Below are positions 6,232 through 51,916 of a stretch of DNA of 64,000 nucleotides, in pieces. This DNA comes from Minisyncoccia bacterium. Its GTDB lineage: Bacteria; Patescibacteriota; Minisyncoccia; Phycocordibacterales; CALRBL01. Where the stretch lies: assembly GCA_038230075.1 (NCBI GenBank), contig JBBRNV010000005.1, positions 14,071 through 78,070 on the forward strand, given 5' to 3'. A program made the position numbers and the translations under genes. Positions within the stretch are counted from its first letter, which is position 1, and each line of letters starts with the position of its first letter. The notes below the pieces were generated by a model. The model saw only the letters and a list, made by a program, of their open reading frames with translations. It did not search any database and was not told the origin of the DNA.

Positions 6232-6313
6232 CTGTTAGGATCCAAAAGAAACAAAGGCGTCGTCGCTCTCACCGAGCCTCGGCGTCCTTTCTTTTTTCAA
6301 CCACAAGCGTGAT

Positions 6314-6404
6314 TTAAATAATAAATACAAAAAGAGTTTCTTCAACGTCCTCACCCTTACGGGCTGCGAATGTTTCAGAAACTCTTTTTGTATTTATTAT
6401 TTAA
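6314..6404. repeat. Perfect 28-bp inverted repeat (hairpin) with 35-nt loop overlapping the rplK stop codon
   Basis: ttaaataataaatacaaaaagagtttct at 6314-6341 is the exact reverse complement of 6377-6404. The loop contains a small cccttacggg hairpin. No U-tract on either side. Confidence 0.8.
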
Positions 6405-6822
6405 CCACATCAACACCCATTGATCGACACGTACCTCGAATCATTTGCATTGCAGCTTCAAGAGAGGTTGCATTCATTTCAGCAATCTTCTTTTCTGCAA
6501 TTTCTTTGACCTGAGCTTCAGTGATTTTTCCAATTTTCTTTGCACCAGTTGTACCTGATCCTTTTTCAAGACCAGCTGCTTTCAAAATCATTTGAGAAGC
6601 GGGGGCAGTCTTAAGAATGAAATCAAATGTTCGGTCATCAAATACTGACATAAGTACCGGAACAATTTCTCCCATTCGATCTCGTGTTGCATCGTTAAAC
6701 CGCTTTACGAAATCACCAATGTTAACACCAGCGGGACCAAGCGCAGTACCAACAGGAGGAGCTGGAGTAGCCTTTCCACCTGGAATTTGGAGCTTAATTA
6801 CTTTTGTGACTTTCTTTGCCAT
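6397..6822 (-). CDS. rplK: 50S ribosomal protein L11
   Basis: MAKKVTKVIKLQIPGGKATPAPPVGTALGPAGVNI matches the L11 N-terminus; 141 aa. Confidence 0.97.
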   Translation of the reverse strand: MAKKVTKVIKLQIPGGKATPAPPVGTALGPAGVNIGDFVKRFNDATRDRMGEIVPVLMSVFDDRTFDFILKTAPASQMILKAAGLEKGSGTTGAKKIGKITEAQVKEIAEKKIAEMNATSLEAAMQMIRGTCRSMGVDVVK

Positions 6823-7776: not shown

Positions 7777-10700
7777 CTAATTGGTAGGAACTGGAGTCTC
7801 AACAGGAGTAGTTTCCGGAGCTGGTTCTGTTGGCGCAGGTGGAGTTATTACAGGATCAGTTGGAAGTATCGAAGGAGTTGATGTTCCAGAATCTGTTGGA
7901 GTTACAGGATCTGAAGATGTTGCAGTAGATGTTCCTGTGCCTGTATCTCCACTTCCACCGCCACCATTACCTCCAGTTGGAGGAGTTGATGTTCCTGTTG
8001 TTAACCCATGACTTTCACAAGATCCTATTGTTGCAACAATAGCACCATCACTTACGGTCATACAGGTAAGATTTCCTGTTACTTTATCTCGCACGGTAAT
8101 TCCCTCTTCAACTGTTGCGTGTTTTGCAGTGAAGTTCTCAACTATCACATCTCGAAGTGCCCCCATTCCATTAACAACTGATGCCCCGAATGATTGAATA
8201 ATTCCAAAGACAGAGGTTGAGCCAGAACCAAGAGCTAGTGAACTTGTTCCTGACATATTATTTGAGAGCACAAATGAAAGATCGCTCGATGATGCCATGA
8301 ACTGATTCAACTTTTCATTGAGTGCTTGAATACCAACAAGAGCAACTCCGACAGGGTCAACTTGTGAAAGGTGTTTTGGATCATTATTTAAACCAAAGAA
8401 GTCATAAAACTGTTCAGCAATTGGGCCAATGTGTGTAGTACTTGCGTCTTGTGATTTATAATTCCATTTACTAATATCGAGTTCTGAAATTTTCAAGAGA
8501 ATATTTTGCTTATCTACAGGTGTGAAGTTTTCCTTAAGTGATCGTGAAGAACTAAAGTTTCCAAGACCTGTCGAGTCAACATATGCGAGCAATGTTCCAT
8601 CATCTGCTCTCCACTCAGAGAGATTGGCGCTTTGTCCTGTTGAACCGGTGATTGTTTGAGCAACAATATCATCTGAGATTTGAATATTGAGACGACTATC
8701 TGGTGTTGTAGTTCCGATTCCCAAATTTCCCGTCGCGCCGATTAAGCGCATTGATTCAGTATATGTACTTCCATCTCCTGTTGAGACATTTCCGAAACTG
8801 ATATATCCATTATCTGGTGAGAATTGTCTAAGTTCAAAAGGTTGGATTCCAAAACCATATCTACTATTTCCACCATCATCATACAAAAGAAGTTTTTGTG
8901 CATCGGTTCCAGATCCAAGTGAAAGGAGGGCTTGTGGTGTGCCAAAAATACCAAGACCTAAGTAACCATTCTCTGAAAGTATTGCCCCATTCCCAGTACC
9001 AGTTCCAGAATCTCGGCTAAAATAAAGATCTCCCGTTGTGCCGTTATTTCGAATACTCCATTGTCCAGCCTCTGCTCCACCTTGGTTGTTAACAGCAAGA
9101 CCAATATTTGAACCACTATCATTTCCAATAATTGACATGAAGTTCGTACCATTCAAATATGTTGTAATTTGACCTTCGACAAAAAGTCTATCTGAAGGTG
9201 TTGTTGTTCCAATTCCTACATTAACAGCATGTCCTCCTGTTCCTCCAAGAATCAGGGAGTTTGATTGCTGTACTTGAGCAAAATAACCGATTGCTGTTGC
9301 ATTAGACAACGAAGAAGAAGAAAAGATCGCACCATCTTGCTGACCAGCATATGAACCAATAAAGGTGTTTCCAACACTGTCTGTGACTGATCCTCCAGCA
9401 AGAACTCCAATTGAAACGTTTTCATTTCCTAAAATATTTGCTTCACCAGCTCTAAAACCTATCGCGCTGTTGTATGAACCTGAAGTGTTCTCGTGTCCAG
9501 ATCGCGAACCAACAAAGCTGTTTCCAAACCCATCAATATTTTGATTTCCCGCTTCAATACCAAAGAAGTTGTTTTCACTTCCTGTTGTGTTATTTATACC
9601 CGCTGCGAAACTAAAGAAGTTGTTATTTGACCCAGTTATGTTATGTGTTCCAGCTGCCGTTCCAAAAAAGTTGTTTCCCCCTCCTCCTGTGTTGTCATGA
9701 CCCGCCGCATTTCCAAAAAAGTTGTTATCGGTTCCTGTTGCATTATTTGCTCCTGCGGTGAACCCAAAGAAGTTGTTAAAATATCCAGAAGTATTACTTG
9801 TTCCTGCATTAAATCCAAAGAAGTTGTTTGAGTACCCGTCTATATTGCTTGATCCGGCACCTGGCCCGAAAAAGTTGTTTGATGAACCATCAACGTTACT
9901 TATACCAGCAGAGTCACCAAAGAAGTTGTTATTAGATCCGATTGTATTCGATCTTCCGGAATTCAAACCAAGAAAGTTATTGGATGAACCATTCAAGTTA
10001 TTTAATCCAGAGTTGAATCCGAAGAAGTTGTTATGCGATCCGTCGATATTATTCTGACCTGTTCCTGACCCCAAGAAGTTGTTTGACACACCATTGATAT
10101 TAGTAACACCAGCATTAAATCCGAAGAAGTTGTTATCTGTTCCATCCTGTGTATCTCGCCCCGCATTTTCACCTATGAAATTATTTGATCCTCCTGTTGT
10201 AATATTTAGTCCAGCTTGATAACCAACAAGAAAATTACTTGTTCCACTCATTGTTGTATTACCAGAATCTGCAAGTAATATACTACTTCCGACACGATCT
10301 AACGCTCGAAAATTTCGAATATAATAAGGCTGACTAGTGTTAACAATTCCATCGACTTCAAGTTTTTGACCGATGGTTGTTGTGCCGATTGAAACATTTC
10401 CTGCATTAAAATAAATATCACTTCCGCTGTTTACCCACTGTGATGATGAAGTTCCACCAGCAAATAACACGCCGTTTTGGTAGAGGTTTCCAGTGAAGTT
10501 GATGTCGCCTTGAACTGCGAGTGTGTGACTTGGTGTTGTTGTGCCGATTCCAAATTTTCCTCCACCAATAGGCGCTCCACTCTGTGTATCACTATTGTAG
10601 ATACCGGTAGCATATAAAACATTTCCAATGTTCAACTCTTGTTCTGCGTTATTTATAACTCCTCGTCCCAACGAAATTGAATTTGAAAAACCTCCTGTTC

Positions 10701-13700
10701 CTGCCCACTGACCAATCGCAATTGATGTTCCGTCTGATGAGTTATTAACCGTGTCGGCTGATCCTGCGTTTAATCCAATAAATATAGAGTTGTTTGCTTG
10801 CGCTGAAGAATCTCCAGCAGTATCTCCTAGAAAAAGCGAGTAAGAAGCACTTGTGGCATTATGTCCTGCGCCAATTCCAAGAAACGTAGATCGAAATACG
10901 TTCGTTGCACCCTCTCCTGTACCAAAACCAATAAAGTTAGAGAGTCCTGCGTCAGTTGCGCCCATTCCTGCTCCTGCGCCAATAAATATTGAACTACTAG
11001 CACGTGTTGCCAATTCTCCCGCAGCGCCTCCGATGAAAATCGAATTCACAGCGTCAGAAGCATGAAATCCGGAACTAGCTCCAATAAAAATAGCTTGGCT
11101 TGCATTTGTTGCTTCGTTTCCAGAACCATCCCCAAGAAAAAGCGAATAGTTTGCGTTGGCGACGTTTGTTCCAGCAGAGGCTCCGATTGCAAGACTATTT
11201 CCATTGATAGAATGGATTGGAAGCCCACTCAGATTAAGAGTGCTTGTCGCGTCTATCGTTCCAAGTGTCACATCTCCTTTGAAAAAGGCATTACCATTGT
11301 CTACTGTTAATTTGTAACCTGGAGTCGTCGTTCCAACTCCCACATTCCCTAAATTATAATAAATATCAGAACCTGTAGTTGTCCACTGTGATGTTCCTGT
11401 TCCTGAAGTGAAGAGGTTTCCATTTTGATAGAGGTTTCCAGTGAAGTTGATGTCGCCACCAACTGCTAGTGTGTATCCAGGGGTTGAAGTAGCAATACCA
11501 ATTCTTCCACCTGTTTCAGGTGCACCACTTGGGGTAATGTCTGCTCGAATGTTATTGGCAAACAGTACTCCTCCCAAGTTTAGTTCTCGAGATTGATTAT
11601 TGGCAGTTCCTTCTCCAATTGCAATACTGTCACTGAATCCTCCAGTTGATGTCCATGCTCCAATTAATATAGAAGATGACGCGAGATTTGTTGTGTTATC
11701 TACCGTGTCGGAGTATCCAGCATTACTACCAAGAAAGATTGAATTCGCAGCGTTGGTTGCTGCGGTTCCGACATTTGCTCCTACGAAAAACGAATCGTGT
11801 GCGTTTGTCGCATCGAGTCCGGCAGAGTATCCAAAGAAATGAGAATTTCTTGCCTGATTTGCATTTCTTCCTGCCTCCTGTCCAAAAAAGTTTGAGCCGT
11901 ATGCAGTGGTTGCATCACGCCCCGCATTGATTCCGAAGAAATTGGAATCATTTGCGTTGAAAGCTCCTCTTCCTGCGTTTGATCCAAAGAAATTGGAATT
12001 ATTTGCGTCATTTGCGTCACGCCCAGCAGACAAACCAAGAAAGTTTGATTCATTAAGATTTGCATCATTTAATCCTGCAAATGAGCCAATAAGTATATTA
12101 TTACTTCCATCTGTTAATGACGTTCCCCCACCCGCAGCAAGAAAGTTATTAGTACCTGTAATTGAAGTGTTTCCCGATACTCCAAGAAACAAATTTCTAG
12201 TCGTGGATGAAAATGCTAACGCTTGAAGATTTTCTATTTTTAATATTCCACCATTTGAAATATTGATGTCACCAACAACACTAAGTTTTGATGCGGGGGT
12301 TGTTGTTCCAACTCCCACATTCCCTAAATTATAATAAATATCAGAACCTGTAGTTGTCCACTGTGATGTTCCTGTTCCTGAAGTGAAGAGGTTTCCATTT
12401 TGATAGAGGTTTCCAGTGAAGTTGATGTTACCTTGAACTGCGAGTGTGTGACTTGGTGTTGTTGTGCCGATTCCGAGGTTTCCATTTGAAAGCATTTGGA
12501 TATATGCAGTATTTGAAAGACCGAGTTTAAAAATATTATCCTGAACAGTTGTTAAGCCATCACCTATCAGATATGAGTTTGTTGCTGTTGCAGCGTTAGC
12601 TTTTCCTAAAGCAAAGCTTCCGTTCGGAACATTGTTGTTGTATCCAAAGGCATATGTAGTAGAACCTGTTACCATATTCAGGAAACCAAAAGCTCCAGAA
12701 TAAGATCCGTTATTTATGGTGTTACTTCCACCAAAAATCGCAGACTCTGTACTAGTACTTATTCCATTTTCACTACCATATACACTTGCGTGATCAAATG
12801 AGTTTATAACCTTGTTTCCTATTCCAAAAGCAACACCTCGAATACCAGAAACTGTATTTGAAGTTCCGTAGGCAAGATTCTCACCTGGAGTAATAGCATC
12901 AACAGGAAAGATTCCATTTGAAATTGTATTTGAAGCTCCGTAGGCTTGGTTATTTCTTCCTTCAATTGTGTTGAATTTACCAAAAGCAACAACACCCCCT
13001 CCGGCTCCTGACGTTACATTCGATCGACCAATTATTATCGCGACACCTGAGTCTACAATGTTTGATGATCCAAAAATATTTGCACCTGATCCGGATCCTG
13101 AATTATCATTTCCCACAACTGATCCACCACTTGAATTCACAACAGAGATATCTCCTGCAACTGTAAGTGCCAAATTTGGAGTTGTTGTTCCTATTCCAAC
13201 ATTTCCTAAATTGTAATAAATATTTGAACCATTATTTAACCACTGAGATGATGTCGTTACTCCTCCAAATAAAATTCCGTTTTGGTAGAGGTTTCCAGTG
13301 AAGTTAATGTCGCCATCTACTCCTAATTTATAACTAGAAGTTGTTGTTCCAACCCCAAGGTTTCCTGTACTACTCGCAAGAGAAAGATAAGAACCGCTCG
13401 ATAAACCAATTAAGAAGGAGTCATTAACATTGTTAATGAGATTGTTTCCGAGAGTGTAAGAACCTGTACTGTTCACCGAGTTTGCAAGCCCAGCAACAAA
13501 ACTATTTGTTCCTGTTGCTCTGTTATTGCTTCCAAAAACTGAGACTTCGGAACCCGTAATAACGTTTGAGAAACCAAACGCATTTGATTCAAATGTTGTT
13601 CCTGACAAAATATTAAACACGCCGAAAGCTGAAGATGTATTTGATGTTCCAGAAATTCCGTTTTGAATTCCAACTGCAACCGAACGATCATCAGCAACAA

Positions 13701-14607
13701 CACTGTTTCCATACCCAAGCGCAGTTGCTCCTCCTGAACTGTTACTTTGAACAGCATTACTTCGTCCAATTGCCGTAGACCTTCCACCGAGTGATGAGTT
13801 ATTGAAACCAACAGCAACAGGTTTAAATCCTGATCCTTGATCGTCAGCGGTGTTGGTAAATCCAAGAGCAACACCATTAATTGCACTGACTCCTGACCCA
13901 ACCGCCACTCCTGATGAACTGTTAATAACATTAATATTTCCAACAATGTTTAGTCGTTCAACTACTGATGTTGTTCCAAACCCCACATTTCCATTAAGAA
14001 AATTAAGATTACTTCCAATATTTAATATCCCACCCGACCCATCGAGGTCTCCAATATGAACCGACCAATCTCCTGTGTTTAAATCAGTTCCTGTTTGATC
14101 AAAAAAACGAGCACCTGAAAAATCTCGAAGAATCAATGTTGAGGTTGATACACTATAAGGAGTTACGTCCAATGCGGCATGTGGAGAAGCAGTTCCTATA
14201 CCAAGTCGTGTAGTTACCGAATCAAATACAAAGTTAGCATTCGCACCGAACACTCCCCCATTGTTAAATTGAATCTGAGTATTTGATCCAGCAGGAGAAG
14301 TAGAACCACTTGAGCTTGCGGTACCGAGGGTTACCCAATTCGAGTTTGTAATTCCTCCTTGTAACTGATAATTAGTTGTATTTGCAACAACATACACACT
14401 CAGGCCTTGAAATCGTTGACCTGATGGAATGGCATCTCGTGCAGTGAGGTCTTGAACTACTGTTCGTGCATCGAGCGGCAATTGAGAATTTAACTGAAAG
14501 TTCGATCCAAGTTGAATACTTGCGAGCGCGTAACTTGCAACGAATACAATGGCAACAATAATACCAGTGAGAGATGATTTAAATATTTTTTTAAAAAATC
14601 TTTTCAT
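7777..14607 (-). CDS. Giant (2276 aa) secreted/cell-surface protein with tail-fibre-like repeat modules and an endosialidase-type C-terminal intramolecular chaperone (peptidase S74-like) domain
   Basis: N-terminal signal/TM (MKRFFKKIFKSSLTGIIVAIVFVASYALAS). Many LGIGTTTP...GDINFTGNLYQNG modules and (S/G)NNFFG repeats. A block ~175 aa from the C-terminus (SRSLKENFTPVDKQNILLKISELDISKWNYKSQDASTTHIGPIAEQFYDFFG...GVALVGIQALNEKLNQ) matches the phage tail-spike autoproteolytic chaperone domain. Thr/Pro/Gly-rich tail follows. Confidence 0.85.
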   Translation of the reverse strand: MKRFFKKIFKSSLTGIIVAIVFVASYALASIQLGSNFQLNSQLPLDARTVVQDLTARDAIPSGQRFQGLSVYVVANTTNYQLQGGITNSNWVTLGTASSSGSTSPAGSNTQIQFNNGGVFGANANFVFDSVTTRLGIGTASPHAALDVTPYSVSTSTLILRDFSGARFFDQTGTDLNTGDWSVHIGDLDGSGGILNIGSNLNFLNGNVGFGTTSVVERLNIVGNINVINSSSGVAVGSGVSAINGVALGFTNTADDQGSGFKPVAVGFNNSSLGGRSTAIGRSNAVQSNSSGGATALGYGNSVVADDRSVAVGIQNGISGTSNTSSAFGVFNILSGTTFESNAFGFSNVITGSEVSVFGSNNRATGTNSFVAGLANSVNSTGSYTLGNNLINNVNDSFLIGLSSGSYLSLASSTGNLGVGTTTSSYKLGVDGDINFTGNLYQNGILFGGVTTSSQWLNNGSNIYYNLGNVGIGTTTPNLALTVAGDISVVNSSGGSVVGNDNSGSGSGANIFGSSNIVDSGVAIIIGRSNVTSGAGGGVVAFGKFNTIEGRNNQAYGASNTISNGIFPVDAITPGENLAYGTSNTVSGIRGVAFGIGNKVINSFDHASVYGSENGISTSTESAIFGGSNTINNGSYSGAFGFLNMVTGSTTYAFGYNNNVPNGSFALGKANAATATNSYLIGDGLTTVQDNIFKLGLSNTAYIQMLSNGNLGIGTTTPSHTLAVQGNINFTGNLYQNGNLFTSGTGTSQWTTTGSDIYYNLGNVGVGTTTPASKLSVVGDINISNGGILKIENLQALAFSSTTRNLFLGVSGNTSITGTNNFLAAGGGTSLTDGSNNILIGSFAGLNDANLNESNFLGLSAGRDANDANNSNFFGSNAGRGAFNANDSNFFGINAGRDATTAYGSNFFGQEAGRNANQARNSHFFGYSAGLDATNAHDSFFVGANVGTAATNAANSIFLGSNAGYSDTVDNTTNLASSSILIGAWTSTGGFSDSIAIGEGTANNQSRELNLGGVLFANNIRADITPSGAPETGGRIGIATSTPGYTLAVGGDINFTGNLYQNGNLFTSGTGTSQWTTTGSDIYYNLGNVGVGTTTPGYKLTVDNGNAFFKGDVTLGTIDATSTLNLSGLPIHSINGNSLAIGASAGTNVANANYSLFLGDGSGNEATNASQAIFIGASSGFHASDAVNSIFIGGAAGELATRASSSIFIGAGAGMGATDAGLSNFIGFGTGEGATNVFRSTFLGIGAGHNATSASYSLFLGDTAGDSSAQANNSIFIGLNAGSADTVNNSSDGTSIAIGQWAGTGGFSNSISLGRGVINNAEQELNIGNVLYATGIYNSDTQSGAPIGGGKFGIGTTTPSHTLAVQGDINFTGNLYQNGVLFAGGTSSSQWVNSGSDIYFNAGNVSIGTTTIGQKLEVDGIVNTSQPYYIRNFRALDRVGSSILLADSGNTTMSGTSNFLVGYQAGLNITTGGSNNFIGENAGRDTQDGTDNNFFGFNAGVTNINGVSNNFLGSGTGQNNIDGSHNNFFGFNSGLNNLNGSSNNFLGLNSGRSNTIGSNNNFFGDSAGISNVDGSSNNFFGPGAGSSNIDGYSNNFFGFNAGTSNTSGYFNNFFGFTAGANNATGTDNNFFGNAAGHDNTGGGGNNFFGTAAGTHNITGSNNNFFSFAAGINNTTGSENNFFGIEAGNQNIDGFGNSFVGSRSGHENTSGSYNSAIGFRAGEANILGNENVSIGVLAGGSVTDSVGNTFIGSYAGQQDGAIFSSSSLSNATAIGYFAQVQQSNSLILGGTGGHAVNVGIGTTTPSDRLFVEGQITTYLNGTNFMSIIGNDSGSNIGLAVNNQGGAEAGQWSIRNNGTTGDLYFSRDSGTGTGNGAILSENGYLGLGIFGTPQALLSLGSGTDAQKLLLYDDGGNSRYGFGIQPFELRQFSPDNGYISFGNVSTGDGSTYTESMRLIGATGNLGIGTTTPDSRLNIQISDDIVAQTITGSTGQSANLSEWRADDGTLLAYVDSTGLGNFSSSRSLKENFTPVDKQNILLKISELDISKWNYKSQDASTTHIGPIAEQFYDFFGLNNDPKHLSQVDPVGVALVGIQALNEKLNQFMASSSDLSFVLSNNMSGTSSLALGSGSTSVFGIIQSFGASVVNGMGALRDVIVENFTAKHATVEEGITVRDKVTGNLTCMTVSDGAIVATIGSCESHGLTTGTSTPPTGGNGGGGSGDTGTGTSTATSSDPVTPTDSGTSTPSILPTDPVITPPAPTEPAPETTPVETPVPTN

Positions 14608-38318: not shown

Positions 38319-38603
38319 ATGAACCTTCTCACTTCACTTGGCCTAACTCAAACACAAGGAACACTTTTTCTTTTATTTAGCATTTTGTGGATTCTCCCTT
38401 GGAAAGCTATCGGCCTCTGGAAAGCTTCTCAAAATGGTCACAAATGGTGGTTTGTTTTCATCTTCATCATTAACACGTTCGCTCTTTTAGAGATCTATTA
38501 CATCTTCTTTGGTGCTGAGCGACAAATTGAAAAAGACCTTCTGAAGGAAGAAGTCGAGGAATCAGATCAAAATCGACACTCTCAAGAGGATGACTCTCAA
38601 TAG
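38319..38603 (+). CDS. Small hypothetical membrane protein
   Basis: Two TM helices, acidic C-terminus; no domain. Confidence 0.35.
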   Translation: MNLLTSLGLTQTQGTLFLLFSILWILPWKAIGLWKASQNGHKWWFVFIFIINTFALLEIYYIFFGAERQIEKDLLKEEVEESDQNRHSQEDDSQ

Positions 38604-38643
38604 AAAGTTGTAAAAGTCTATAAATAAGGTTATAAATGACCAC

Positions 38644-38733
38644 GGAGGAGTGGCAGAGTGGTCTATCGCACTTGTCTTGAAAACAAGAGTCCCTTCACGG
38701 GGACCGTGAGTTCGAATCTCACCTCCTCCGCCA
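38644..38733 (+). tRNA. tRNA-Ser (anticodon UGA), CCA encoded; insertion target of the adjacent element
   Basis: GGAGGAG...anticodon loop CTTGAAA...long variable arm GTCCC-TTCA-CGGGGAC...GTGAGTTCGAATCTCAC-CTCCTCC-GCCA. Confidence 0.85.
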
Positions 38734-40230
38734 AGAATCACATTTAGAAAAATCAAGGTTGGAAGCCTCGGCGCAAAGCGCCTCGGCATGGTATTTTTCC
38801 GCAATTTTGAAGGCATTTTTGAAATCGCACGCCAGCGTGCGGTCGGCAATGCGGAAGTTCGAACCAATCTTTTTGAGAAAATCCCGTCCCGCGACGGGAT
38901 TTTCTTGTTGAGCGTATTTTTCGGCTTGGTTGGCCTCTTTTAGAAAGGCAATGGCAAGTTCGAACCGATTATTGCTCTTTCGCTCAAAAGACTGGATTTT
39001 CTCCTGAAAATCTTTTTTAGCGAGAATGAGCTTGTGCTTTTTAGTGGCATATTCCGTTTGCAATAAATTGCCTTCAAGTTGTAAATCGAGCAAACGATCA
39101 AGTTTTGTCTCAACCTGCACAAGCTCATCTCTCGTCTTTTGAGCAAAAGAGCTTTCCGCTTGGGCAATATCTATTTTTTCTTTTTCAAAATATGCGATTG
39201 AAACATTGACCCAAGCGGAAGACAAAGAAACTTTTTTGATTTCCTCTTTTATTTGAGAAGTGATGGCGTCCTCTCTCGCGTATCTTTGCGAGCAAGGATT
39301 TTTCCGTTTGGTACAGCGGAGATAGTTGTGTCCCTTTTGTGTTTCAGTGGTAATGAAGCAACCACATTCTCCGCAACGGAAAAATCCTCTATACACATAA
39401 GGTTTCAACTTTGGCGATTTCGGTTTGCTCTTATTCGCCATCACTTCTTGAACGGAATCAAAAAGTTTCTTTGTGATAATCGGTTCATGCTTTCCGTCAT
39501 ACAATTCGCCGTTATATTCAATCATTCCAAAATAGATTTTATTTTTCAGCATGTACTGATAATTTGAGACGGAAAGCATTTTACCTTTCTTGCCAACCAA
39601 GCCCAAGGAATTGATAATCTTTCGGATTTGAGCGAGGGGGTATTCGCCAGTAGCGTACATTTCAAAAGCCCGCTTGATATACTTTGCCTTTTCTTTATCA
39701 ACAGCGATACAGCGGGCATTCTTGTCGTTCACATAGCCAAGCGGCGCCCAAGCGGGCCATATTCCATTTCTCAATTTCTGGCGAATACCCCTCTTTATAT
39801 TTTCCGAAAGATTATCCACATAGTATTTTGATTGCCCAAAAGCAATGGACAACATAAATTTCCCTTGCGGTGTGCAGTCAAACCAAAAAGTGGGAAATTT
39901 TAGCGTGGTAATTTTGCCAGTATCTACGAGATAGATAATCCGTCCGCCGTCTATAGAATTGCGAGCAAGGCGGTCGGGGTGCCACGCTAAAATTCCTTCC
40001 GCTTCGTTTTTCTCTATGCCCGCCACCATATCATTAAAAATTTCTCGCCCCGGCTCTTTGGCGGTTTTGCTTTCCACAAATTCACGGACGATCTGCAAAT
40101 TTTCTTTTCGCGCGTATTCTTTTAGCTCGAAAATTTGCGCTTCAATACTCAAAACCTGCCTTTCGGGTTCGTCCGTGGATTTGCGGGCATAGAGGAAAAA
40201 CTTTTTGGTTTGTAAATTTATGTTGTCCAT
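38719..40230 (-). CDS. Large serine recombinase (resolvase catalytic domain + recombinase domain + zinc ribbon + coiled coil)
   Basis: YARKSTDEPERQVLSIEAQ (catalytic Ser motif), recombinase-domain motifs, CGECGC...C zinc ribbon; 503 aa; ~44% GC versus ~37% for the host. Confidence 0.9.
   Translation of the reverse strand: MDNINLQTKKFFLYARKSTDEPERQVLSIEAQIFELKEYARKENLQIVREFVESKTAKEPGREIFNDMVAGIEKNEAEGILAWHPDRLARNSIDGGRIIYLVDTGKITTLKFPTFWFDCTPQGKFMLSIAFGQSKYYVDNLSENIKRGIRQKLRNGIWPAWAPLGYVNDKNARCIAVDKEKAKYIKRAFEMYATGEYPLAQIRKIINSLGLVGKKGKMLSVSNYQYMLKNKIYFGMIEYNGELYDGKHEPIITKKLFDSVQEVMANKSKPKSPKLKPYVYRGFFRCGECGCFITTETQKGHNYLRCTKRKNPCSQRYAREDAITSQIKEEIKKVSLSSAWVNVSIAYFEKEKIDIAQAESSFAQKTRDELVQVETKLDRLLDLQLEGNLLQTEYATKKHKLILAKKDFQEKIQSFERKSNNRFELAIAFLKEANQAEKYAQQENPVAGRDFLKKIGSNFRIADRTLACDFKNAFKIAEKYHAEALCAEASNLDFSKCDSWRRR
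38728..38861. repeat. Inverted repeat X, copy 1 (~134 bp; includes the last 6 nt of tRNA-Ser and the last ~45 codons of the recombinase)
   Basis: ccgccaagaatcacatttagaaaaatcaaggttggaagcctcggcgcaaagcgcctcggc...gcggaagttcg is the reverse complement of 40345-40478, with 1 mismatch. Weaker similarity continues ~60 bp further. Confidence 0.85.
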
Positions 40231-40344
40231 ATTGTTTTGAAATTAGTTTTTGGGCAATCAGGGAAAAATACGCTCAACCTTTCGCCGAAAGCGAAAGAAA
40301 AAAGATTGGTTTGCAAAATTCCATTTTGCCAGAACTTCGCTCTG

Positions 40345-40478
40345 CGAACTTCCGCATTGCCGACCGTACGCTGGCGTGCGATTTCAAAAATGCCTTCAAA
40401 ATTGCGGAAAAATACCATGCCGAGGCGCTTTGCGCCGAGGCTTCCAACCTTGATTTTTCTAAATGTGATTCTTGGCGG
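40345..40478. repeat. Inverted repeat X, copy 2 (immediately upstream of the recombinase start, abutting Y copy 1)
   Basis: Reverse complement of 38728-38861. Carries a duplicate of the recombinase C-terminal coding segment (the + ORF 40311..40535 reads FRIADRTLACDFKNAFKIAEKYHAEALCAEASNLDFSKCDSW). Confidence 0.85.
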
Positions 40479-40643
40479 TGTTTCTTGATTGATGTTCGAA
40501 CATTTTTTGAAGAAAATCCGAATTCCGAATTTTAAAATCCAGTTGCTCGGGCGGGCAAAAAGGAAGGGGGTTGGGGGGAAGGAATTTTTGCCCGCCCTCG
40601 CTTTCCAATCCCAATTTTTTTCCGCCGCCGTCGCCGAATTTCG
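40475..40643. repeat. Inverted repeat Y, copy 1 (~167 bp)
   Basis: gcggtgtttcttgattgatgttcgaacattttttgaag...gggcgggcaaaaaggaagggggttgggggg...ccgaatttcg is the reverse complement of 43967-44132, with 2-3 mismatches. Contains the palindrome gttcgaac. Confidence 0.85.
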
Positions 40644-40727
40644 TATTTCGCTTTGCGAAATGCGCCGCCTAGAATTTTGGTTGCCAAATTTCAATGTTTT
40701 TGTTATCATTATATTAAGCTAGTTGAT

Positions 40728-40757
40728 ATACACTCAATATAAGTAGTGTATTATAAT
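40728..40757 (+). promoter_or_regulatory. Candidate operator palindrome (atacact-N10-agtgtat) and -10 box (tataat) upstream of the cargo operon
   Basis: 7-bp inverted repeat at 40728-40751 is immediately followed by tataat at 40752-40757, 22 nt before the ATG at 40780. A plausible binding site for the XRE HTH protein in the operon. Confidence 0.35.
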
Positions 40758-40779
40758 AGTTTATCAAAGTCAAAACAAT

Positions 40780-41094
40780 ATGGCAAATCAATCGGTAAAA
40801 GAAACATTTGAATCACTTTGGGAATGTTGCACTTCTAATAAGAGGGTATGCCCAATGCCAATGAAGTGGAATGATTTATATCAAATGTTAAATGATACCA
40901 AGCAAGTCGGTGCCGGTTATGAGCCGTCAATCCCCTTGATTTTAGGAGCATGGGGAAATACTTCAGACGAAGATAAACTAAATAGATTGAGAATTCATAT
41001 TAAATGGGCTTCAGATCATAATCAGCTTGATGAAATTGGAAAATATTTGAGATCACTTTCAGAAGAAGATTGGGCTCATTACGGAGAAATATAA
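40780..41094 (+). CDS. Hypothetical 104-aa protein, first gene of the cargo operon
   Basis: MANQSVKETFESLWECCTSNKRVCPMPMKWNDLYQ...; no recognisable domain; the next gene starts 4 nt after its stop. Confidence 0.5.
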   Translation: MANQSVKETFESLWECCTSNKRVCPMPMKWNDLYQMLNDTKQVGAGYEPSIPLILGAWGNTSDEDKLNRLRIHIKWASDHNQLDEIGKYLRSLSEEDWAHYGEI

Positions 41095-41098
41095 TTTT

Positions 41099-41299
41099 AT
41101 GGCAAATACAGTAAGCGAAAACATCCGCAAATTACGAATCAAAAAAGGAATATCCCAAGATCGCCTCTCAAAAGAGGCTGATTTGGCGTTAAATACAGTT
41201 GTGAAGATAGAAACAGGCGGAAGCCCGAATCCAACCGTGGATACTTTAGAAAAAATAGCCAAAGCCCTCGGCGTTCCGGTGGCTGAATTATTTAAATAA
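41099..41299 (+). CDS. XRE/Cro-C1-type helix-turn-helix transcriptional regulator (66 aa)
   Basis: NIRKLRIKKGISQDRLSKEADLALNTVVKIETGGSPNPTVDTLEKIAKALGVPVAELF is a canonical HTH_3 domain. Confidence 0.85.
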   Translation: MANTVSENIRKLRIKKGISQDRLSKEADLALNTVVKIETGGSPNPTVDTLEKIAKALGVPVAELFK

Positions 41300-41303
41300 A
41301 AAT

Positions 41304-43934
41304 ATGTTAACACAAAAATACGACGAACTTTTTAATCCGCTATTAGAAGCACTCAATAATCTTGGGGGCTCTTCTTCGATTAAGAAAATAGAAGAGGAGG
41401 TTGCAAATATTCTTAATTTAACAGCAGAGGATAGATATGATAAGCATCGTGGAAATAGAACAAAGCTAGAATATAGATTAGCATGGGCTAGTAATTACTT
41501 AAAAAGATATGGCTTAATTGATAAATCAAAAAGAGGAATATGGTCTCTAACTGAAGACGGAAAGAGAACCAACATTGTTGACAAAGACGAAGTTAATCAA
41601 TTTGTTAAAACATTAGATTTAAAAAAATCTAATGTTCGTTTAACAAAAAAAATAGTTGAGAAAATCAATATAGTTGAATTTCTTCAAAAAATTGATTTGG
41701 AGGCTTTTAAATATGAACCTCATTTTTTAACTAACCCCGGAGTAAGAGTTAAGGATATTCTATCCAGCGTTGAAAAGAGATGGGTATTGCCGAATTTCCA
41801 AAGATATTATGATTGGGACAAGGAGGACGTAAGGGCTTTTTTGGAATCCATTTTTAAGGACTATTTTGTAGGATCGCTGCTTTTGTGGGAAGTAGAGAAA
41901 GAACCAGAGATTGCTTATTTTCCGATACAAGGTGTTAAAAACAAAATTGATAAGCCAGAAATAATTATTCTTGATGGCCAACAAAGGATTACTTCGTTGT
42001 ATTATGCGATTAAAAATCCAACTCTAGAAGAGGATGGTGTTAAATCGTTGTTTTATATAAATTTCAAAAATTATTTTGAAAATTTATCTTCCGACATTGT
42101 TATTACAAGTAGTAGAAAATTAAGCATTAGAGAGTCGGTAGAGTCCTTACTTTTCCCATTTTACGAACTGGAAAATCATGTCGAATGGATGCGAGAATTT
42201 GTTGATTTTTATGAAGAGCAGGATGGAATTGACAAAAGAAAGTTAAAAGAGCTTAGCAGAATAATGGAGGACAGGGTTCGTCATATGTGGGGAAGTTTTC
42301 AAATTCCCGAAATTAAACTTCCGGCCTCAATGAAACTTCATCATGTTGTTGATATATTTGAAAACATAAACACAAGAGGGAAACTTCTTGACGCTTTTGA
42401 TCTTTTAATTGCAGCCTCCATAAAACAGAATATTGATTTAAGAAAATTATGGGATGGTTCACGTCAGAAGTACCCAAACCTTGCTAGATATGCCGAAAAA
42501 ACAAAAAACAAGATTAGGATGTATATTTTGCAATCAATTTCGCTACTCCATAATCCAACTAGTTCATGCAAAAAAAGTGACATATTAGAATTATACGAGC
42601 AAATATACTCAAATAAGGGAAAGGACCCAAAAACTTTTGAAAAGCATTGGGAAGAAATGTCTGATTATGTAAATTTGGCCATAAAGGAGATGGAGGATCT
42701 CAAAGGTGGTTTTGGAATAATTGATGAATCACATGTTCCATTCATGTCGATAATTCCGATACTGGCTGCATTAAAAAGAGAGGTTGATTCGAGAGATAAT
42801 AAGCATAGTTGTAATGAAAAAATCAAACAATGGTATTGGTCAGTGGTATTTAGTGAAGCATATTCATCTGCGGTTGATAGCCAGCTAACATTAGACTTTA
42901 AGGAATTAAAGGAGTGGTTCTCCGATGATACAAAAATTCCAAAAAGCGTGGAAGAGGCAAGAATTCTCATTAAAACTTTGAATTTAAAAAAGGTTAATAC
43001 TTTTTCAAGTGCTGTTTTTCGTGGAGTACTCTCTTTACTAGCCATAAAAGGATCTAAAGATTTGCAAACAGGTGAAATGGTTAATAATAGAAATGACTAT
43101 CATAAAGACCATATATTTCCGAAAAGCAAATCAGAAAAATATGTTACTACAAAAAAGGAGCTAGATTCAATATTAAATATGGCTTGGTTGACAAGTCCCA
43201 CTAACGAAAGCAAGGGCGCAAAAGAACCAAAGAAATACTTTGAAGAGTTTGAGAGTAAATACAACGGAAATAAAGGAGCGTACACAGAAGTTCTTGAATC
43301 ACACTTCATCAACAAAGAGGACTACGACTATCTTCTAGATAATAATTTCGAAGAATTTATAGTCGAAAGAGAAAGTGTTTTAGTGGACGAGATTAAAAGA
43401 TTAATTGGTTGGAATAAACATGATCAAGACAGTGATATCCAAAATAACGATATCGACCAATTAATAAATTCTTACGAAAATGAAAAACTTGAGTTTAAGT
43501 CAACATTTAAAAAAAACATACTAACACAAAAATCTGATGAAATTATTAGATTTTCAGTGCTTAAAACAATAGCTGGTTTTTTGAATGCACGAGGAGGAAC
43601 TTTAATAATTGGTTATGACGAAAAAGGCAAGAAGGTAATTGGATTGGAACAAGATTACGAATTAATGAAGAGGGGTGATCGAGATAGTTTTGAGTTAGAG
43701 TTTTGGAATTACATTGAAGCGAATATTGATAAGGATGTAGTGAAAAATAATATAAATTTGAGATTTGAATTAATTGATGAGAAAGAGCTGGCAGTAATTG
43801 AAATCAAAAGAAGTTCAAAGCCAATTTATATTAAAAAAGCTGACAAAAAAATTCTTTATACTCGTAACAGAAATGAGACTGAGAATTTAGAAGATCCTGA
43901 AGAAATTCATAATTATATAGAAAAACATTTCTAA
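41304..43934 (+). CDS. Four-domain nuclease: Mrr_N winged helix + DUF262 (ParB/GmrS-like NTPase) + DUF1524 (GmrD-like His-Me/HNH nuclease) + C-terminal AlbA_2/Schlafen-like domain; GmrSD/BrxU-like type IV restriction candidate
   Basis: N-terminus YRLAWASNYLKRYGLIDKSKRGIWSLTEDG (Mrr_N). NFQRYYDW...IILDGQQRITSLYYAI (DUF262 DGQQR motif). YHKDHIFPKSK...NMAWLTSPTNESKG (DUF1524 DHIxP motif). C-terminus EKLEFKSTFKKN...SVLKTIAGFLNARGGTLIIGYDEKGKKVIGLEQD (AlbA_2). 876 aa; ~32% GC, AGA/ATA-rich codon usage. Confidence 0.8.
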   Translation: MLTQKYDELFNPLLEALNNLGGSSSIKKIEEEVANILNLTAEDRYDKHRGNRTKLEYRLAWASNYLKRYGLIDKSKRGIWSLTEDGKRTNIVDKDEVNQFVKTLDLKKSNVRLTKKIVEKINIVEFLQKIDLEAFKYEPHFLTNPGVRVKDILSSVEKRWVLPNFQRYYDWDKEDVRAFLESIFKDYFVGSLLLWEVEKEPEIAYFPIQGVKNKIDKPEIIILDGQQRITSLYYAIKNPTLEEDGVKSLFYINFKNYFENLSSDIVITSSRKLSIRESVESLLFPFYELENHVEWMREFVDFYEEQDGIDKRKLKELSRIMEDRVRHMWGSFQIPEIKLPASMKLHHVVDIFENINTRGKLLDAFDLLIAASIKQNIDLRKLWDGSRQKYPNLARYAEKTKNKIRMYILQSISLLHNPTSSCKKSDILELYEQIYSNKGKDPKTFEKHWEEMSDYVNLAIKEMEDLKGGFGIIDESHVPFMSIIPILAALKREVDSRDNKHSCNEKIKQWYWSVVFSEAYSSAVDSQLTLDFKELKEWFSDDTKIPKSVEEARILIKTLNLKKVNTFSSAVFRGVLSLLAIKGSKDLQTGEMVNNRNDYHKDHIFPKSKSEKYVTTKKELDSILNMAWLTSPTNESKGAKEPKKYFEEFESKYNGNKGAYTEVLESHFINKEDYDYLLDNNFEEFIVERESVLVDEIKRLIGWNKHDQDSDIQNNDIDQLINSYENEKLEFKSTFKKNILTQKSDEIIRFSVLKTIAGFLNARGGTLIIGYDEKGKKVIGLEQDYELMKRGDRDSFELEFWNYIEANIDKDVVKNNINLRFELIDEKELAVIEIKRSSKPIYIKKADKKILYTRNRNETENLEDPEEIHNYIEKHF

Positions 43935-43966
43935 ATTATTTTGGCGGCGTGCCAGTTTCACTGGCA

Positions 43967-44132
43967 CGAAATTCGGCGGCGGCGGAAAAAAATTGGAATC
44001 GGAAAGCGAGGGCGGGCAAAAATTCCTTCCCCCCAACCCCCTTCCTTTTTGCCCGCCCGAGCAACTGGATTTTAAAATTCGGAATTCGGATTTTCTTCAA
44101 AAAATGTTCGAACATCAATCAAGAAACACCGC
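43967..44132. repeat. Inverted repeat Y, copy 2 (right boundary of island)
   Basis: Reverse complement of 40475-40643. Ends in ...gaaacaccgc, directly followed by unique flank acataacaat. Confidence 0.85.
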
Positions 44133-44136
44133 ACAT

Positions 44137-44173
44137 AACAATAAAGACCACCTCATTGGTGGTCTTTATTGTT
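44137..44173. repeat. Perfect 16-bp stem hairpin (aacaataaagaccacc-tcatt-ggtggtctttattgtt) flanking the island; no U-tract
   Basis: Exact palindrome immediately outside IR Y'. Could be the pre-insertion tRNA-Ser downstream structure, a terminator of the convergent regulator gene, or part of the attachment site. Confidence 0.6.
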
Positions 44174-44239
44174 ATGCTACATAAGATAGAGAGATTCGGG
44201 TCGAACCTCCTTTCGAAAGGAATCTCACATTTACCACCT

Positions 44240-45085
44240 TCAAGCATTAATCCCCTTCAATACCTCACGAATCATTTTATTATGATCAACTTTCTTTCCT
44301 CCAGCTTTTACATATTCAAACATTTCTCTCATGAAGCCTGTCATATTTTTATTGATAATTTCAATAGCAACATCTTCATGCCAATTAATAATTAATGTGG
44401 TGTCTTTGAAAATCCATATTTCTGAATCGTAGTTAAAACGATCATTGGGAAACACGGTATAGTCTGCCATTCTTCCCTCAAGGGTCTTTGTTGACTCCTT
44501 ATACCTCTGAGGATCAGACGTTATTTCTTTTTCATACGAATCATACGCACCCTCATTCAAAATACCATCAACAACCAAGTGATTATCGATAATTGATTTA
44601 TTGAAACTTCTGAATTGTTCGGGGGTTAGTTTGTGAATTTGATCGAGATACGATCGGTGATGCTGAATCGCCTTAATGCGCTCGTTTTTATTCAACGAAG
44701 CGATGCGTGCAAATGTTGGAATAATCTCTTTGGGTCCAACGTGAATAATAAACTCATTTTCTTTGGCAGTTTTAATACGCGCACCCTTTTTTGTTTCTGT
44801 GGCAATAGTTACTTCATCAATAATATTCTGCAATTCTAGAACAAATTGTTGCTGTGTAAGTGCAATGTATCTATATCGTTTACCAAATTTCACCTGATTC
44901 ACCAACTTCCTTTCTAAAAGCTCTTTCAAGGTGAAAGCGACACTTGTTCGAGGAATCCCCGTCTCTTTTGCGACATGACTAAGACTTTTGGCAGTACTCA
45001 TTGATCGCAACAACTCAATTGAAACATCAGACAAGCCAAGCATTTTTAGTATTTTTTTATCCCACATCATATGGATAGTATACAT
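44240..45085 (-). CDS. TrmB/MarR-like winged-helix transcriptional regulator with C-terminal ligand-binding-like domain
   Basis: N-terminal HTH (LSHVAKETGIPRTSVAFTLKELLERKLV); 281 aa. Uncertain family. Confidence 0.45.
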   Translation of the reverse strand: MYTIHMMWDKKILKMLGLSDVSIELLRSMSTAKSLSHVAKETGIPRTSVAFTLKELLERKLVNQVKFGKRYRYIALTQQQFVLELQNIIDEVTIATETKKGARIKTAKENEFIIHVGPKEIIPTFARIASLNKNERIKAIQHHRSYLDQIHKLTPEQFRSFNKSIIDNHLVVDGILNEGAYDSYEKEITSDPQRYKESTKTLEGRMADYTVFPNDRFNYDSEIWIFKDTTLIINWHEDVAIEIINKNMTGFMREMFEYVKAGGKKVDHNKMIREVLKGINA

Positions 45086-49885: not shown

Positions 49886-49915
49886 TCGATTCCTAACGAG
49901 GGGAAAGCAAAAATA

Positions 49916-49955
49916 AAAAGCATCTAGTGGGAATGAATTCACTAGATGCTTTTTA
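49916..49955. terminator. Bidirectional intrinsic terminator (aagcatctagtg-loop-cactagatgctt + T-run)
   Basis: 12-bp perfect stem flanked by A-run and T-run, between the tRNA (+) and rpsT (-). Confidence 0.65.
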
Positions 49956-49963
49956 TTTTGTTT

Positions 49964-50936: not shown

Positions 50937-51860
50937 ATGCCAGAACTACCAGAAGTTCAAACCACCGTTGATGGAATTAAGAAAGTTGTTGTTGGAAGTG
51001 TAATTACTGATGTTTGGACCGACTATAACAGCCCTTATTACAAAGGATCAGAACAAATCAAAGATCCAACGTATTTTACATTTTTTAGAAAAGAACTTCT
51101 TGGAAAACAAATCATCGGTTCATCTCGTCGCGCAAAAAATGTATTAATTCATGTCGAAGGAGGTCTCACTATTCTTATTCATATGAAAATGACTGGCCAC
51201 ATAATGCACGGAACATTTGCCTTTGATGCCAAAAAGAAAAAAGATAAATGGTCACCTCTTGATGAAGGCCCCTTACAAGATCCTTTTAACAAATTTCTTC
51301 ATCTTGTTTTCTCTTTATCTTCAGGCAAAAGCTTAGTTCTCTCTGATATGCGAAAGTTTGCCAAAGTAACTTTGGTTAAAACCGCAGACATGAATTCAAC
51401 GATTCATTTTAAAGATCTGGGGCCAGAGCCACTCTCAAAAGAATTTACTCTAAAGGTTTTTATGGAAACAATTAATAAGAAACCAAAAGGAAAAATAAAG
51501 ACAGTTCTGATGGACCAATCTCTTATCGCAGGAATTGGAAATATTTATTCAGATGAAGTGTTGTGGAGAGCGGGAGTTCATCCTGAAGAATTGGTTTCAA
51601 ATATCCCCCACCCTCTCTTTAAAAAAATGTTTGATGCGATAAAAACAACACTCAATAAAGGAATCGATTTCGGCGGAGACTCAATGTCAGATTATCGAAA
51701 CATTTATGGTGAACCTGGAAAGTTTCAAGAACAACACCAAGCATACCGACAAACTAAAAAATCATGTAAGAAACCTAAGTGCAAGGGAATCATTCTTCGA
51801 AAGATGGTTGGAGGAAGAAGCGCTCACTTCTGCAGCGCTCATCAGTTGTTACAAAAATAA
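50937..51860 (+). CDS. mutM: Formamidopyrimidine-DNA glycosylase / Nei family
   Basis: N-terminal MPELPEVQ (catalytic Pro2/Glu3), H2TH domain, C-terminal zinc finger CKKPKCKG...HFCSAHQ. Confidence 0.85.
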   Translation: MPELPEVQTTVDGIKKVVVGSVITDVWTDYNSPYYKGSEQIKDPTYFTFFRKELLGKQIIGSSRRAKNVLIHVEGGLTILIHMKMTGHIMHGTFAFDAKKKKDKWSPLDEGPLQDPFNKFLHLVFSLSSGKSLVLSDMRKFAKVTLVKTADMNSTIHFKDLGPEPLSKEFTLKVFMETINKKPKGKIKTVLMDQSLIAGIGNIYSDEVLWRAGVHPEELVSNIPHPLFKKMFDAIKTTLNKGIDFGGDSMSDYRNIYGEPGKFQEQHQAYRQTKKSCKKPKCKGIILRKMVGGRSAHFCSAHQLLQK

Positions 51861-51916
51861 AAAACACCGAGTTGGAGTAACCCCACTCGATGCTTTTTAT
51901 TTTTATAGTCTATTTA

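Follow-up and report, generated by a model that had tools for sequence, protein, structure and literature searches.

Type IV restriction enzymes of the GmrSD/BrxU family feature an alpha-helical domain of 200-400 amino acids (aa) between a DUF262 and a DUF1524 domain, and the only extra domains reported in a 2015 survey of GmrSD proteins are DUF4268, DUF4357 and DNA_binding_1 (PMC4619093). BrxU acts on modified cytosines, is stimulated by nucleoside triphosphates (NTPs), carries a DH-N-N-D catalytic set and forms an interlocked dimer; EcoKMrr responds to m6A and m5C (PMC12707154). HEC-05 is BrxU-like, 99.2% identical (bioRxiv 10.1101/2024.01.29.577857). Some Menshen NsnA proteins combine Mrr_N with DUF262 and a helical ParB-associated domain (PMC12065111). 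Catalysis by SLFN11 and by prokaryotic Schlafens, which cleave tRNA, relies on the Ex4ExK motif. One established class of prokaryotic Schlafens, pSlfn7 or 'DUF262.pSlfn', counts 109 members, and a member encoded in a P2-like prophage of E. coli protects this host against T3/T7 and other phages; proteins of 764 aa, with GmrSD_N at 13-229 and AlbA_2 at 603-750, are filed as DUF262.pSlfn in Table S2 of the same work (Taboada et al. 2025, bioRxiv 10.1101/2025.07.24.666596). Here is described an 876-aa protein which joins Mrr_N, DUF262, DUF1524 and Schlafen/AlbA_2 modules. It is encoded in a 64,000-nt stretch of the genome of a Minisyncoccia bacterium of the Patescibacteriota (assembly GCA_038230075.1, contig JBBRNV010000005.1, positions 14,071 to 78,070), hereafter the window. 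The host's placement among Patescibacteria agrees with its PolA, whose best named relatives, ~60% identical, belong to Patescibacteria, Parcubacteria or Paceibacterota. The gene is the third of a tight operon with 4-nt gaps, in which it is preceded by open reading frame (ORF) 104 and by a gene for a helix-turn-helix (HTH) regulator, and the operon resides in a putative mobile element at the end of a tRNA-Ser gene.

The protein is read as a BrxU/GmrSD-type DNA nuclease with an Mrr_N reader and a Schlafen domain as second effector, carried as mobile cargo; we give this reading as a whole a probability of about 0.6. Its part from DUF262 to DUF1524, the core, is a BrxU-branch GmrSD enzyme. The PADLOC model HEC-05, which corresponds to BrxU, aligns end to end with it (aa 144-702 to profile positions 23-594 of 600, E 8.3e-30). 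BrxU (7p9k) is also the best Foldseek match of the predicted structure (E 1.4e-13 over 631 columns, essentially the whole length), and is followed in rank by SspE (8e-4) and by AlbA_2, SAMD9 and Schlafen structures matching the tail; phmmer links aa 146-241 to the same BrxU entry. The structure is an AlphaFold2 monomer model with a mean predicted local distance difference test score of 86.3, in which low-confidence linkers are found only at aa 110-116 and 709-715, and part head and tail from the core. In the DUF262 module the motifs FQRxxxW (aa 165-171) and DGQQR (aa 224-228, nt 41973-41987) are recognizable, and F165, Q166, R167, W171, D224, G225, Q227 and R228 are invariant in a family alignment of 42 sequences. 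Helices at aa ~370-560 of the model correspond to the helical domain placed between DUF262 and DUF1524 in GmrSD and BrxU. The Mrr_N region is matched in addition by PADLOC mREase_IV (aa 4-111) and, in the structure search, by winged-helix folds. No NCBIfam family was assigned to the protein. The sequence-only reading that had called attention to the gene quoted motifs which are all in place (DGQQR at aa 224, DHIFP at aa 602, EFKSTF at aa 730, GGTLIIG at aa 764). All four domains it proposed are present, Mrr_N, DUF262 and AlbA_2 with strong Pfam scores and DUF1524 with a marginal one and support of other kinds, and the GmrSD/BrxU-type nuclease core that it suggested is borne out by the HEC-05 and Foldseek matches.

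The DUF1524 finger requires closer attention, since DUF1524 (Pfam GmrSD_C) was absent from the whole-protein Pfam scan at E ≤ 0.01. The motif D602-H603-I-F-P, encoded at nt 43107-43121, is followed by N625 and N634, and in the 42-sequence alignment these two asparagines, like D602 and H603, vary little or not at all. The PHROG family 'endonuclease VII' matches aa 577-657 (E 2e-5). These data, the end-to-end HEC-05 match and the BrxU match of the AlphaFold model concur, and therefore the DUF1524 domain is genuinely present, despite its marginal Pfam score.

The tail holds an Ex4ExK motif (E725-NEKL-E730-F-K732, nt 43476-43499), and further on the residues G764-G765 and G770-Y-D772-E773, with GGTLIIG at the start of this stretch. 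A profile of the tail family matches in the PDB the Schlafens SLFN11, 14, 8, 12 and 5, with E-values from 1e-8 (SLFN11) to 1e-3, and the tail matches found by Foldseek include DIP2311, the SAMD9 tRNase domain, and SLFN13, 14 and 11. The two glutamates and the lysine of Ex4ExK, as the GGxLxIG stretch, are invariant across 13 aligned AlbA_2-bearing relatives. By pattern check, both motifs are found in 27 of the 29 proteins made of core and tail, down to ~27% identity. The HNH-type motif (D/H)H[ILV]xP...N...N is kept in all core-plus-tail proteins having Ex4ExK, so that the two sites are co-conserved. D772 falls in the column of the first D in the 'GVDD' of pig SLFN11, and is presumably the equivalent of the third catalytic Asp in human SLFN11. 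Paralogues with a HEPN_Swt1 domain in the same tail position keep the catalytic RNxxxH. The tail is probably a second, RNA-directed effector rather than a sensor, because true readers sit N-terminally in this family and, of its three kinds of tail, two have an RNase fold with the catalytic residues intact. The earlier view of AlbA_2 as a sensor has thus to be revised: as the catalytic Ex4ExK is kept and a HEPN RNase occupies the same position in paralogues, an effector role is at least as likely.

Relatives of the protein were collected by a word-indexed search and by an exhaustive HMMER search of 1.84 billion representatives, the latter yielding 10,658 matches at E ≤ 1e-3 and 404 at E ≤ 1e-30. 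The core measures ~550 aa and is shared, at 40-48% identity, by many proteins 800-1400 aa long, in which different modules are attached at either end. Mrr_N, EVE, McrB_N and several unannotated modules alternate at the N-terminus; at least three kinds of modules, 150-180 aa long, alternate at the C-terminus (AlbA_2/Schlafen, HEPN_Swt1, and a third domain with no name). Combinations include EVE, core and HEPN (P0066), EVE, core and AlbA_2 (P0190), McrB_N, core and third domain (P0070), Mrr_N, core and third domain (P0091, P0111, P0118), and core and AlbA_2 with no head (P0210 and others). Core and AlbA_2 are joined in at least 20 of the top 150 representatives at 50% identity. Proteins of this kind are also encoded on plasmids of cultured haloarchaea (Haloquadratum and another) and of Sinorhizobium, where they carry no label beyond 'DUF262 domain-containing protein' or DUF2081. 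Proteins with the full four-module layout are rare, making up one cluster at 50% identity and 11 clusters at 90%, 58-95% identical to the window protein. A pseudogene or decaying gene was considered and rejected, given the uninterrupted ORF, the conservation of every motif and the full length of these 11 clusters. The third tail domain (~170-175 aa; P0022, P0023, P0029, P0059, P0070, P0091 and others) is the commonest in the wider family. It features the pattern 'PFxN...C..YIYWxDKYFS..GLE.L ... IHDRWI ... NIPSPD..ARGQxSE', has only a weak match to the PLD-like MIT_C (E 0.038), and may represent a third effector type.

Most homologues stand alone, with no recombinase, HTH or ORF104 gene nearby, and are flanked by genes for methyltransferases, type I and II restriction-modification (R-M) systems, AbiE or Fic proteins. 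Single genes in such company fit the defence role that had been assumed at the outset. The closest relatives among GTDB species representatives reside in DPANN archaea, share the four-module layout, and are 59-60% identical over the full length. One is found in a metagenome-assembled genome (MAG) of Micrarchaeota (L015, JAKATK010000007.1, 8001-10619), where it is flanked by an N6/N4 methyltransferase gene and an AbiEi/AbiEii pair, another in a Woesearchaeota MAG (L016). This distribution suggests that the gene passed across domains among ultra-small organisms. An 87%-identical copy in L008 (409-3107) adjoins a heliorhodopsin gene and is not accompanied by ORF104, HTH or recombinase genes. DNA similarity to the window runs there from ~10 nt before the ATG to the start of repeat arm B' (see Table 1), and therefore the nuclease gene also moves alone.

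ORF104 and the HTH gene form a conserved two-gene leader cassette, as judged from their joint occurrence elsewhere. The HTH protein scores as PADLOC 'Control_protein', the R-M controller model (3.6e-11), and ORF104 has no family or fold match in Pfam, PADLOC, NCBIfam, PHROG and a fold search. In L027-L029 the cassette, made of an ORF104 homologue and an HTH gene 94% identical to that of the window, lies ahead of genes for an EVE-PD-(D/E)xK nuclease, an N6/N4 methyltransferase and a ResIII helicase, and a second copy of the cassette in L027 precedes a P-type ATPase gene. Where the cargo is unrelated, HTH proteins are 86-94% and ORF104 proteins 52-82% identical to those in the window. ORF104 homologues alone lie within type I R-M operons (L018-L020). 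A 44%-identical HTH gene precedes the nuclease in the same position in L012 and L013, and the gene of P0006, a 70%-identical nuclease, has alongside both an HTH gene (44% identical) and a large serine recombinase gene. The palindrome ATACACT-N10-AGTGTAT (40728-40751), placed between the promoter-like site and ORF104, is a possible HTH operator, but has no conserved counterpart ahead of the cassette with the 94%-identical HTH gene.

The operon lies in a 5.4-kb serine-recombinase element, for which insertion at the tRNA-Ser 3' end is well supported. Resolvase, Recombinase and Zn-ribbon recombinase domains are found in one protein beside the insertion junction in a conserved target, the last codons of the recombinase gene overlap the tRNA 3' end, and a direct CCGC repeat marks the outer ends (38728-38731 and 44129-44132). 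When the outer flanks are joined, the tRNA 3' end is rebuilt and followed by the hairpin at 44143-44167, which is probably the displaced tRNA-Ser terminator. Recombinases at least 90% identical, encoded in further assemblies, likewise adjoin tRNA-Ser 3' ends. Junction, direct repeats, rebuilt tRNA end and position of the related recombinases together argue for an insertion. In L012 recombinase, HTH and nuclease genes lie at a tRNA-Gln gene within a single 154-nt inverted pair (6279-6432 / 10633-10786). The element of the window features instead two nested pairs of long inverted repeats, an arrangement unusual for serine-integrase elements. These may denote segments able to invert, a pair of units lying end to end, or an extra attachment site; the sequence of the internal A'B block is exactly the reverse complement of the B'+A junction expected in a circular form. 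Downstream of the nuclease gene are found a repeat arm and then an unrelated host gene. No empty site came up when JGI metagenome contigs were scanned for exact matches to the reconstructed attB (CCTCCTCCGCACATAACAATAAAG) and to the hairpin of the right flank, and the source lineage seems unsampled there. An Rfam scan over 38400-44500 found tRNA only.

That the gene sits in a mobile module with its own HTH regulator, as had been proposed, agrees with the recombinase element and with the HTH_3 gene upstream. The module had also been called compositionally foreign, and this holds for the nuclease gene (31.9% GC, the lowest among all 2631-nt windows, z = -3.6), not for the recombinase (41.2%) and HTH (41.3%) genes. 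Recombinases encoded in L021-L024 (146-1597 or 8001-9452) are 92.5% identical to that of the window at the DNA level, and lie at tRNA-Ser(GCT) 3' ends in unrelated contexts (IMPDH/CobN; rve transposase). Each of these contigs breaks off ~140 nt upstream of the recombinase gene, at the position of the A' repeat, which suggests that the same repeat structure is present in these relatives and that the element has a broad host range.

Table 1. Features of the nuclease gene, its operon and the surrounding element (positions refer to the window unless a locus is named)
Feature	Positions	Strand	Basis or remark
tRNA-Ser(UGA), insertion target	38644..38733	+	element begins inside its last 6 nt
503-aa large serine recombinase	38719..40230	-	Pfam Resolvase+Recombinase+Zn_ribbon_recom; PHROG integrase 7.3e-72
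Inverted-repeat arm A, left element end, holds recombinase C-terminal codons	38728..38861		134 nt, 99% complementary to A'
Inverted-repeat arm A'	40345..40478		pairs with A; A/A' bracket recombinase
Inverted-repeat arm B, abuts A', contains GC-rich hairpin	40475..40633		159 nt, 98% complementary to B'
Best sigma-70-like site TTGCCA-17-TATCAT with TG, candidate operon promoter	40681..40709	+	consensus match only
ORF104, small protein, first operon gene	40780..41094	+	forms conserved leader cassette with HTH
66-aa HTH_3 (Cro/C1-type) regulator	41099..41299	+	Pfam HTH_3 2e-15; 4 nt upstream of nuclease ATG
876-aa Mrr_N-DUF262-helical-DUF1524-Schlafen/AlbA_2 ORF	41304..43934	+	ATG start
Mrr_N winged-helix module, aa 6-88	41319..41567	+	Pfam PF14338 E 3.6e-21, 75.5 bits
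DUF262/GmrSD_N ParB-like NTPase module, aa 149-368	41748..42407	+	Pfam E 5.4e-31
All-helical middle domain, aa ~369-569, BrxU/GmrSD/SspE-like	42408..43010	+	DSSP of model; HEC-05; Foldseek BrxU
DUF1524-type His-Me/HNH finger, aa ~570-700	43011..43403	+	GmrSD_C, invariant columns, PHROG, HEC-05, structure
Schlafen/AlbA_2 module, aa 725-876	43476..43931	+	Pfam SLFN_AlbA_2 aa 725-861, E 1.9e-13
Inverted-repeat arm B', right element end	43974..44132		pairs with B; B/B' bracket cargo
Hairpin AAAGACCACC-TCATT-GGTGGTCTTT, just outside element	44143..44167	+	read directly
Cassette/ORF104 homologue sites in other loci	L027 1-565, 4205-4742; L028 173-710; L020 4473-4790; L018 5991-6230; L025 880-1176

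According to the mechanism proposed, the Mrr_N winged helix would hold the enzyme on DNA and probably read a base modification, as suggested by domain scans that place EVE or McrB_N readers at the same position in paralogues. The DUF262 NTPase would bind and hydrolyse NTP and gate the state of an intertwined dimer, as in BrxU, and the DUF1524 His-Me finger would cut DNA. The Schlafen tail, held by a flexible linker, would act as a second effector cleaving tRNA or other RNA; two tails, paired within the dimer, could together resemble the SLFN nuclease with its two lobes. Such an RNase would add a layer of abortive infection on top of DNA restriction. The ORF104-HTH cassette would control expression, in analogy with R-M controller proteins, and the whole operon would travel as cargo of the large-serine-recombinase element in a Patescibacteria genome.

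Several observations weigh against this reading. The finger is marginal by hidden Markov model (HMM), as GmrSD_C scores 23.7 bits on the isolated segment against a cut-off of 23 (E 4.7e-5). A profile of the DUF1524 region built from 18 family members retrieves neither BrxU nor SspE by sequence, its sole match being a weak one to the Cas9 HNH domain (E 0.22), and therefore the link to BrxU rests on the HEC-05 model and on structure. Dependence on DNA modification is deduced only from family membership and from the reader domains. The only tested DUF262-Slfn protein, from E. coli UC4224, has neither DUF1524 nor Mrr_N and shares almost no sequence with the window protein. As to the tail, a single AlbA_2 lobe with no partner lobe may not be a competent nuclease, two lobes being present in SLFN nucleases (10.1101/2025.07.24.666596). 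The column of D772, the position of the third SLFN catalytic Asp, features N, G or S in several close homologues, with an acid kept one position on. The SAMD9 domain among the Foldseek matches was crystallised with DNA, AlbA_2 domains bind DNA too, and the SLFN5 N-domain, another structural neighbour, binds DNA and RNA. A nucleic-acid-binding role for the tail is thus a serious rival: the protein might be a type IV enzyme with two DNA readers, Mrr_N and AlbA_2, in which the tail serves as sensor or specificity module and the DUF1524 HNH domain is the sole effector. This is possible, and deserves to be kept in view, but we regard it as the less probable account. Conservation of Ex4ExK and GGxLxIG reaching ~27% identity speaks against a plain sensor, the alternative HEPN_Swt1 tail with its intact RNxxxH is an RNase and no reader, readers of this nuclease family are found at the N-terminus, and Slfn is the only nuclease-like domain of the tested E. 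coli protein.

The operon might mainly be an addiction or exclusion module, in which the nuclease is a toxin checked by ORF104-HTH and stabilises the 5.4-kb element. Tight linkage of the operon to a serine-recombinase mini-element in two lineages would agree with this role, as would the presence of a MazE-like gene upstream of the nuclease in L009-L011 and the association of the cassette with different nucleases and, in its second L027 copy, with a P-type cation ATPase. We hold it to be unlikely as the main role, given that most homologues are single genes which lack these companions and that the HTH protein scores as an R-M controller rather than as a member of an antitoxin-specific family; addiction and defence roles can moreover coexist. 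It is highly improbable that the protein is an SspE-like or Menshen-like component, sensing host phosphorothioate marks or acting with the partners NsnB and NsnC. PADLOC SspE models match weakly the N-terminus of DUF262 (2.8e-5), Foldseek also matches SspE (8e-4), and the Menshen NsnA shares Mrr_N and DUF262, but full-length matches to BrxU and HEC-05 are far stronger. Membership in SspE was rejected because only weak N-terminal HMM matches are found and no ssp genes lie in the element or beside homologues, where dnd genes are equally missing. Membership in Menshen (NsnABC) was rejected because genes resembling those of the NsnB ATPase and NsnC are missing from the same neighbourhoods, and DUF1524, present here, is missing in NsnA (PMC12065111).

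If the tail of the BrxU/GmrSD-type nuclease is an active RNase, DNA restriction and abortive infection of the Schlafen/HEPN type would be wired to one sensor in one polypeptide. The protein would then offer a compact system for studying type IV recognition coupled to two effectors, and would bring GmrSD enzymes into the prokaryotic Schlafen immunity that has recently been recognised. A wider proposal, to be taken as tentative and rather doubtful in its entirety, is that of a two-tier immune enzyme, in which sensing by Mrr_N and DUF262 drives an HNH DNase, directed at modified phage DNA, and a back-up Schlafen tRNase, which would halt translation once restriction has failed. Members of the family would swap the RNase tier (Schlafen, HEPN, PLD-like). 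The gene would pass between ultra-small Patescibacteria and DPANN archaea on minimal tRNA-targeting serine-recombinase elements, with ORF104-HTH as a plug-in controller for restriction genes. Should the tail serve for binding only, the protein would be an ordinary, though elaborate, modular type IV restriction enzyme. The locus also shows how defence genes are packaged in episymbiotic Patescibacteria, by combining a 5.4-kb recombinase element with a reusable ORF104-HTH cassette.

Two other features mark the window. An ORF of 2276 aa (7777-14607, minus strand) contains tandem repeats of ~51/102 nt and four repeats of ~189 nt, ~900-975 nt apart, which are located at 9617-10146 and 10373-13366; it probably encodes a very large, repeat-rich protein of the cell surface. 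A 52-nt palindromic, terminator-like element (CAAAAATAAAAAGC...GCTTTTTATTTT) is present in two copies, 81% identical, at 49908-49959, directly after tRNA-Arg(GCG), and at 51852-51903.

Among known systems, BrxU/HEC-05 (GmrSD-family type IV, PDB 7P9K) is similar to the window protein in having a DUF262 domain with FQRxxxW and DGQQR motifs, a helical middle, and a DUF1524 finger of the DHxxP..N..N type, and in being a system of one gene that occurs in defence islands. The structural alignment shows only ~18% identity, and the RLFDS nucleotide motif of BrxU is AFLES here. The window protein adds to the BrxU layout Mrr_N (aa 1-~115) and the Schlafen domain (aa 716-876), and in contrast to BrxU is not BREX-associated. 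E. coli Mrr and type IV enzymes fused to a winged helix share the N-terminal Mrr_N, but the catalytic part is here of the GmrSD type, not the PD-QxK of Mrr_cat. Membership in Mrr was rejected, as no Mrr_cat match is found and PADLOC mREase_IV covers only positions 4-111 of its 317. Menshen NsnA differs in needing NsnB and NsnC. The modular enzymes in which an EVE, PUA or SRA reader is joined to an HNH or PD-(D/E)xK nuclease follow the same reader-plus-nuclease logic, and paralogues of the window protein resemble them in placing EVE or McrB_N where Mrr_N sits; in contrast to this family, they feature neither a DUF262 NTPase nor a second, RNase-type domain (Lutz et al. 2019, PMC6765204).

Proteins of the pSlfn7 class are similar in carrying, in the same polypeptide, DUF262 towards the N-terminus and a C-terminal SLFN_AlbA_2 domain that contains Ex4(E/D)xK. 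The 764-aa members correspond in spacing to core and tail of the window protein minus Mrr_N, their HNH domain being unannotated, and neither this domain nor a dual-nuclease layout is annotated in the preprint describing the class (10.1101/2025.07.24.666596). The tested member from E. coli UC4224 differs in length (589 aa) and in having DGLQR in place of DGQQR, and homology to it was rejected, as the BLASTP match (E 0.017) spans 81 aa of DUF262 only. The sequence-only reading had taken the joining of these domains in a single protein to be unfamiliar. The combination is not unheard of, because DUF262 with AlbA_2/Schlafen is catalogued as pSlfn7, core-plus-tail proteins are encoded on plasmids, and Mrr_N with DUF262 is found in NsnA; rarity is limited to the full four-module layout. 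What is new here is this four-module arrangement, the co-conservation of both nuclease sites, and the family-wide swapping of RNase-type tails.

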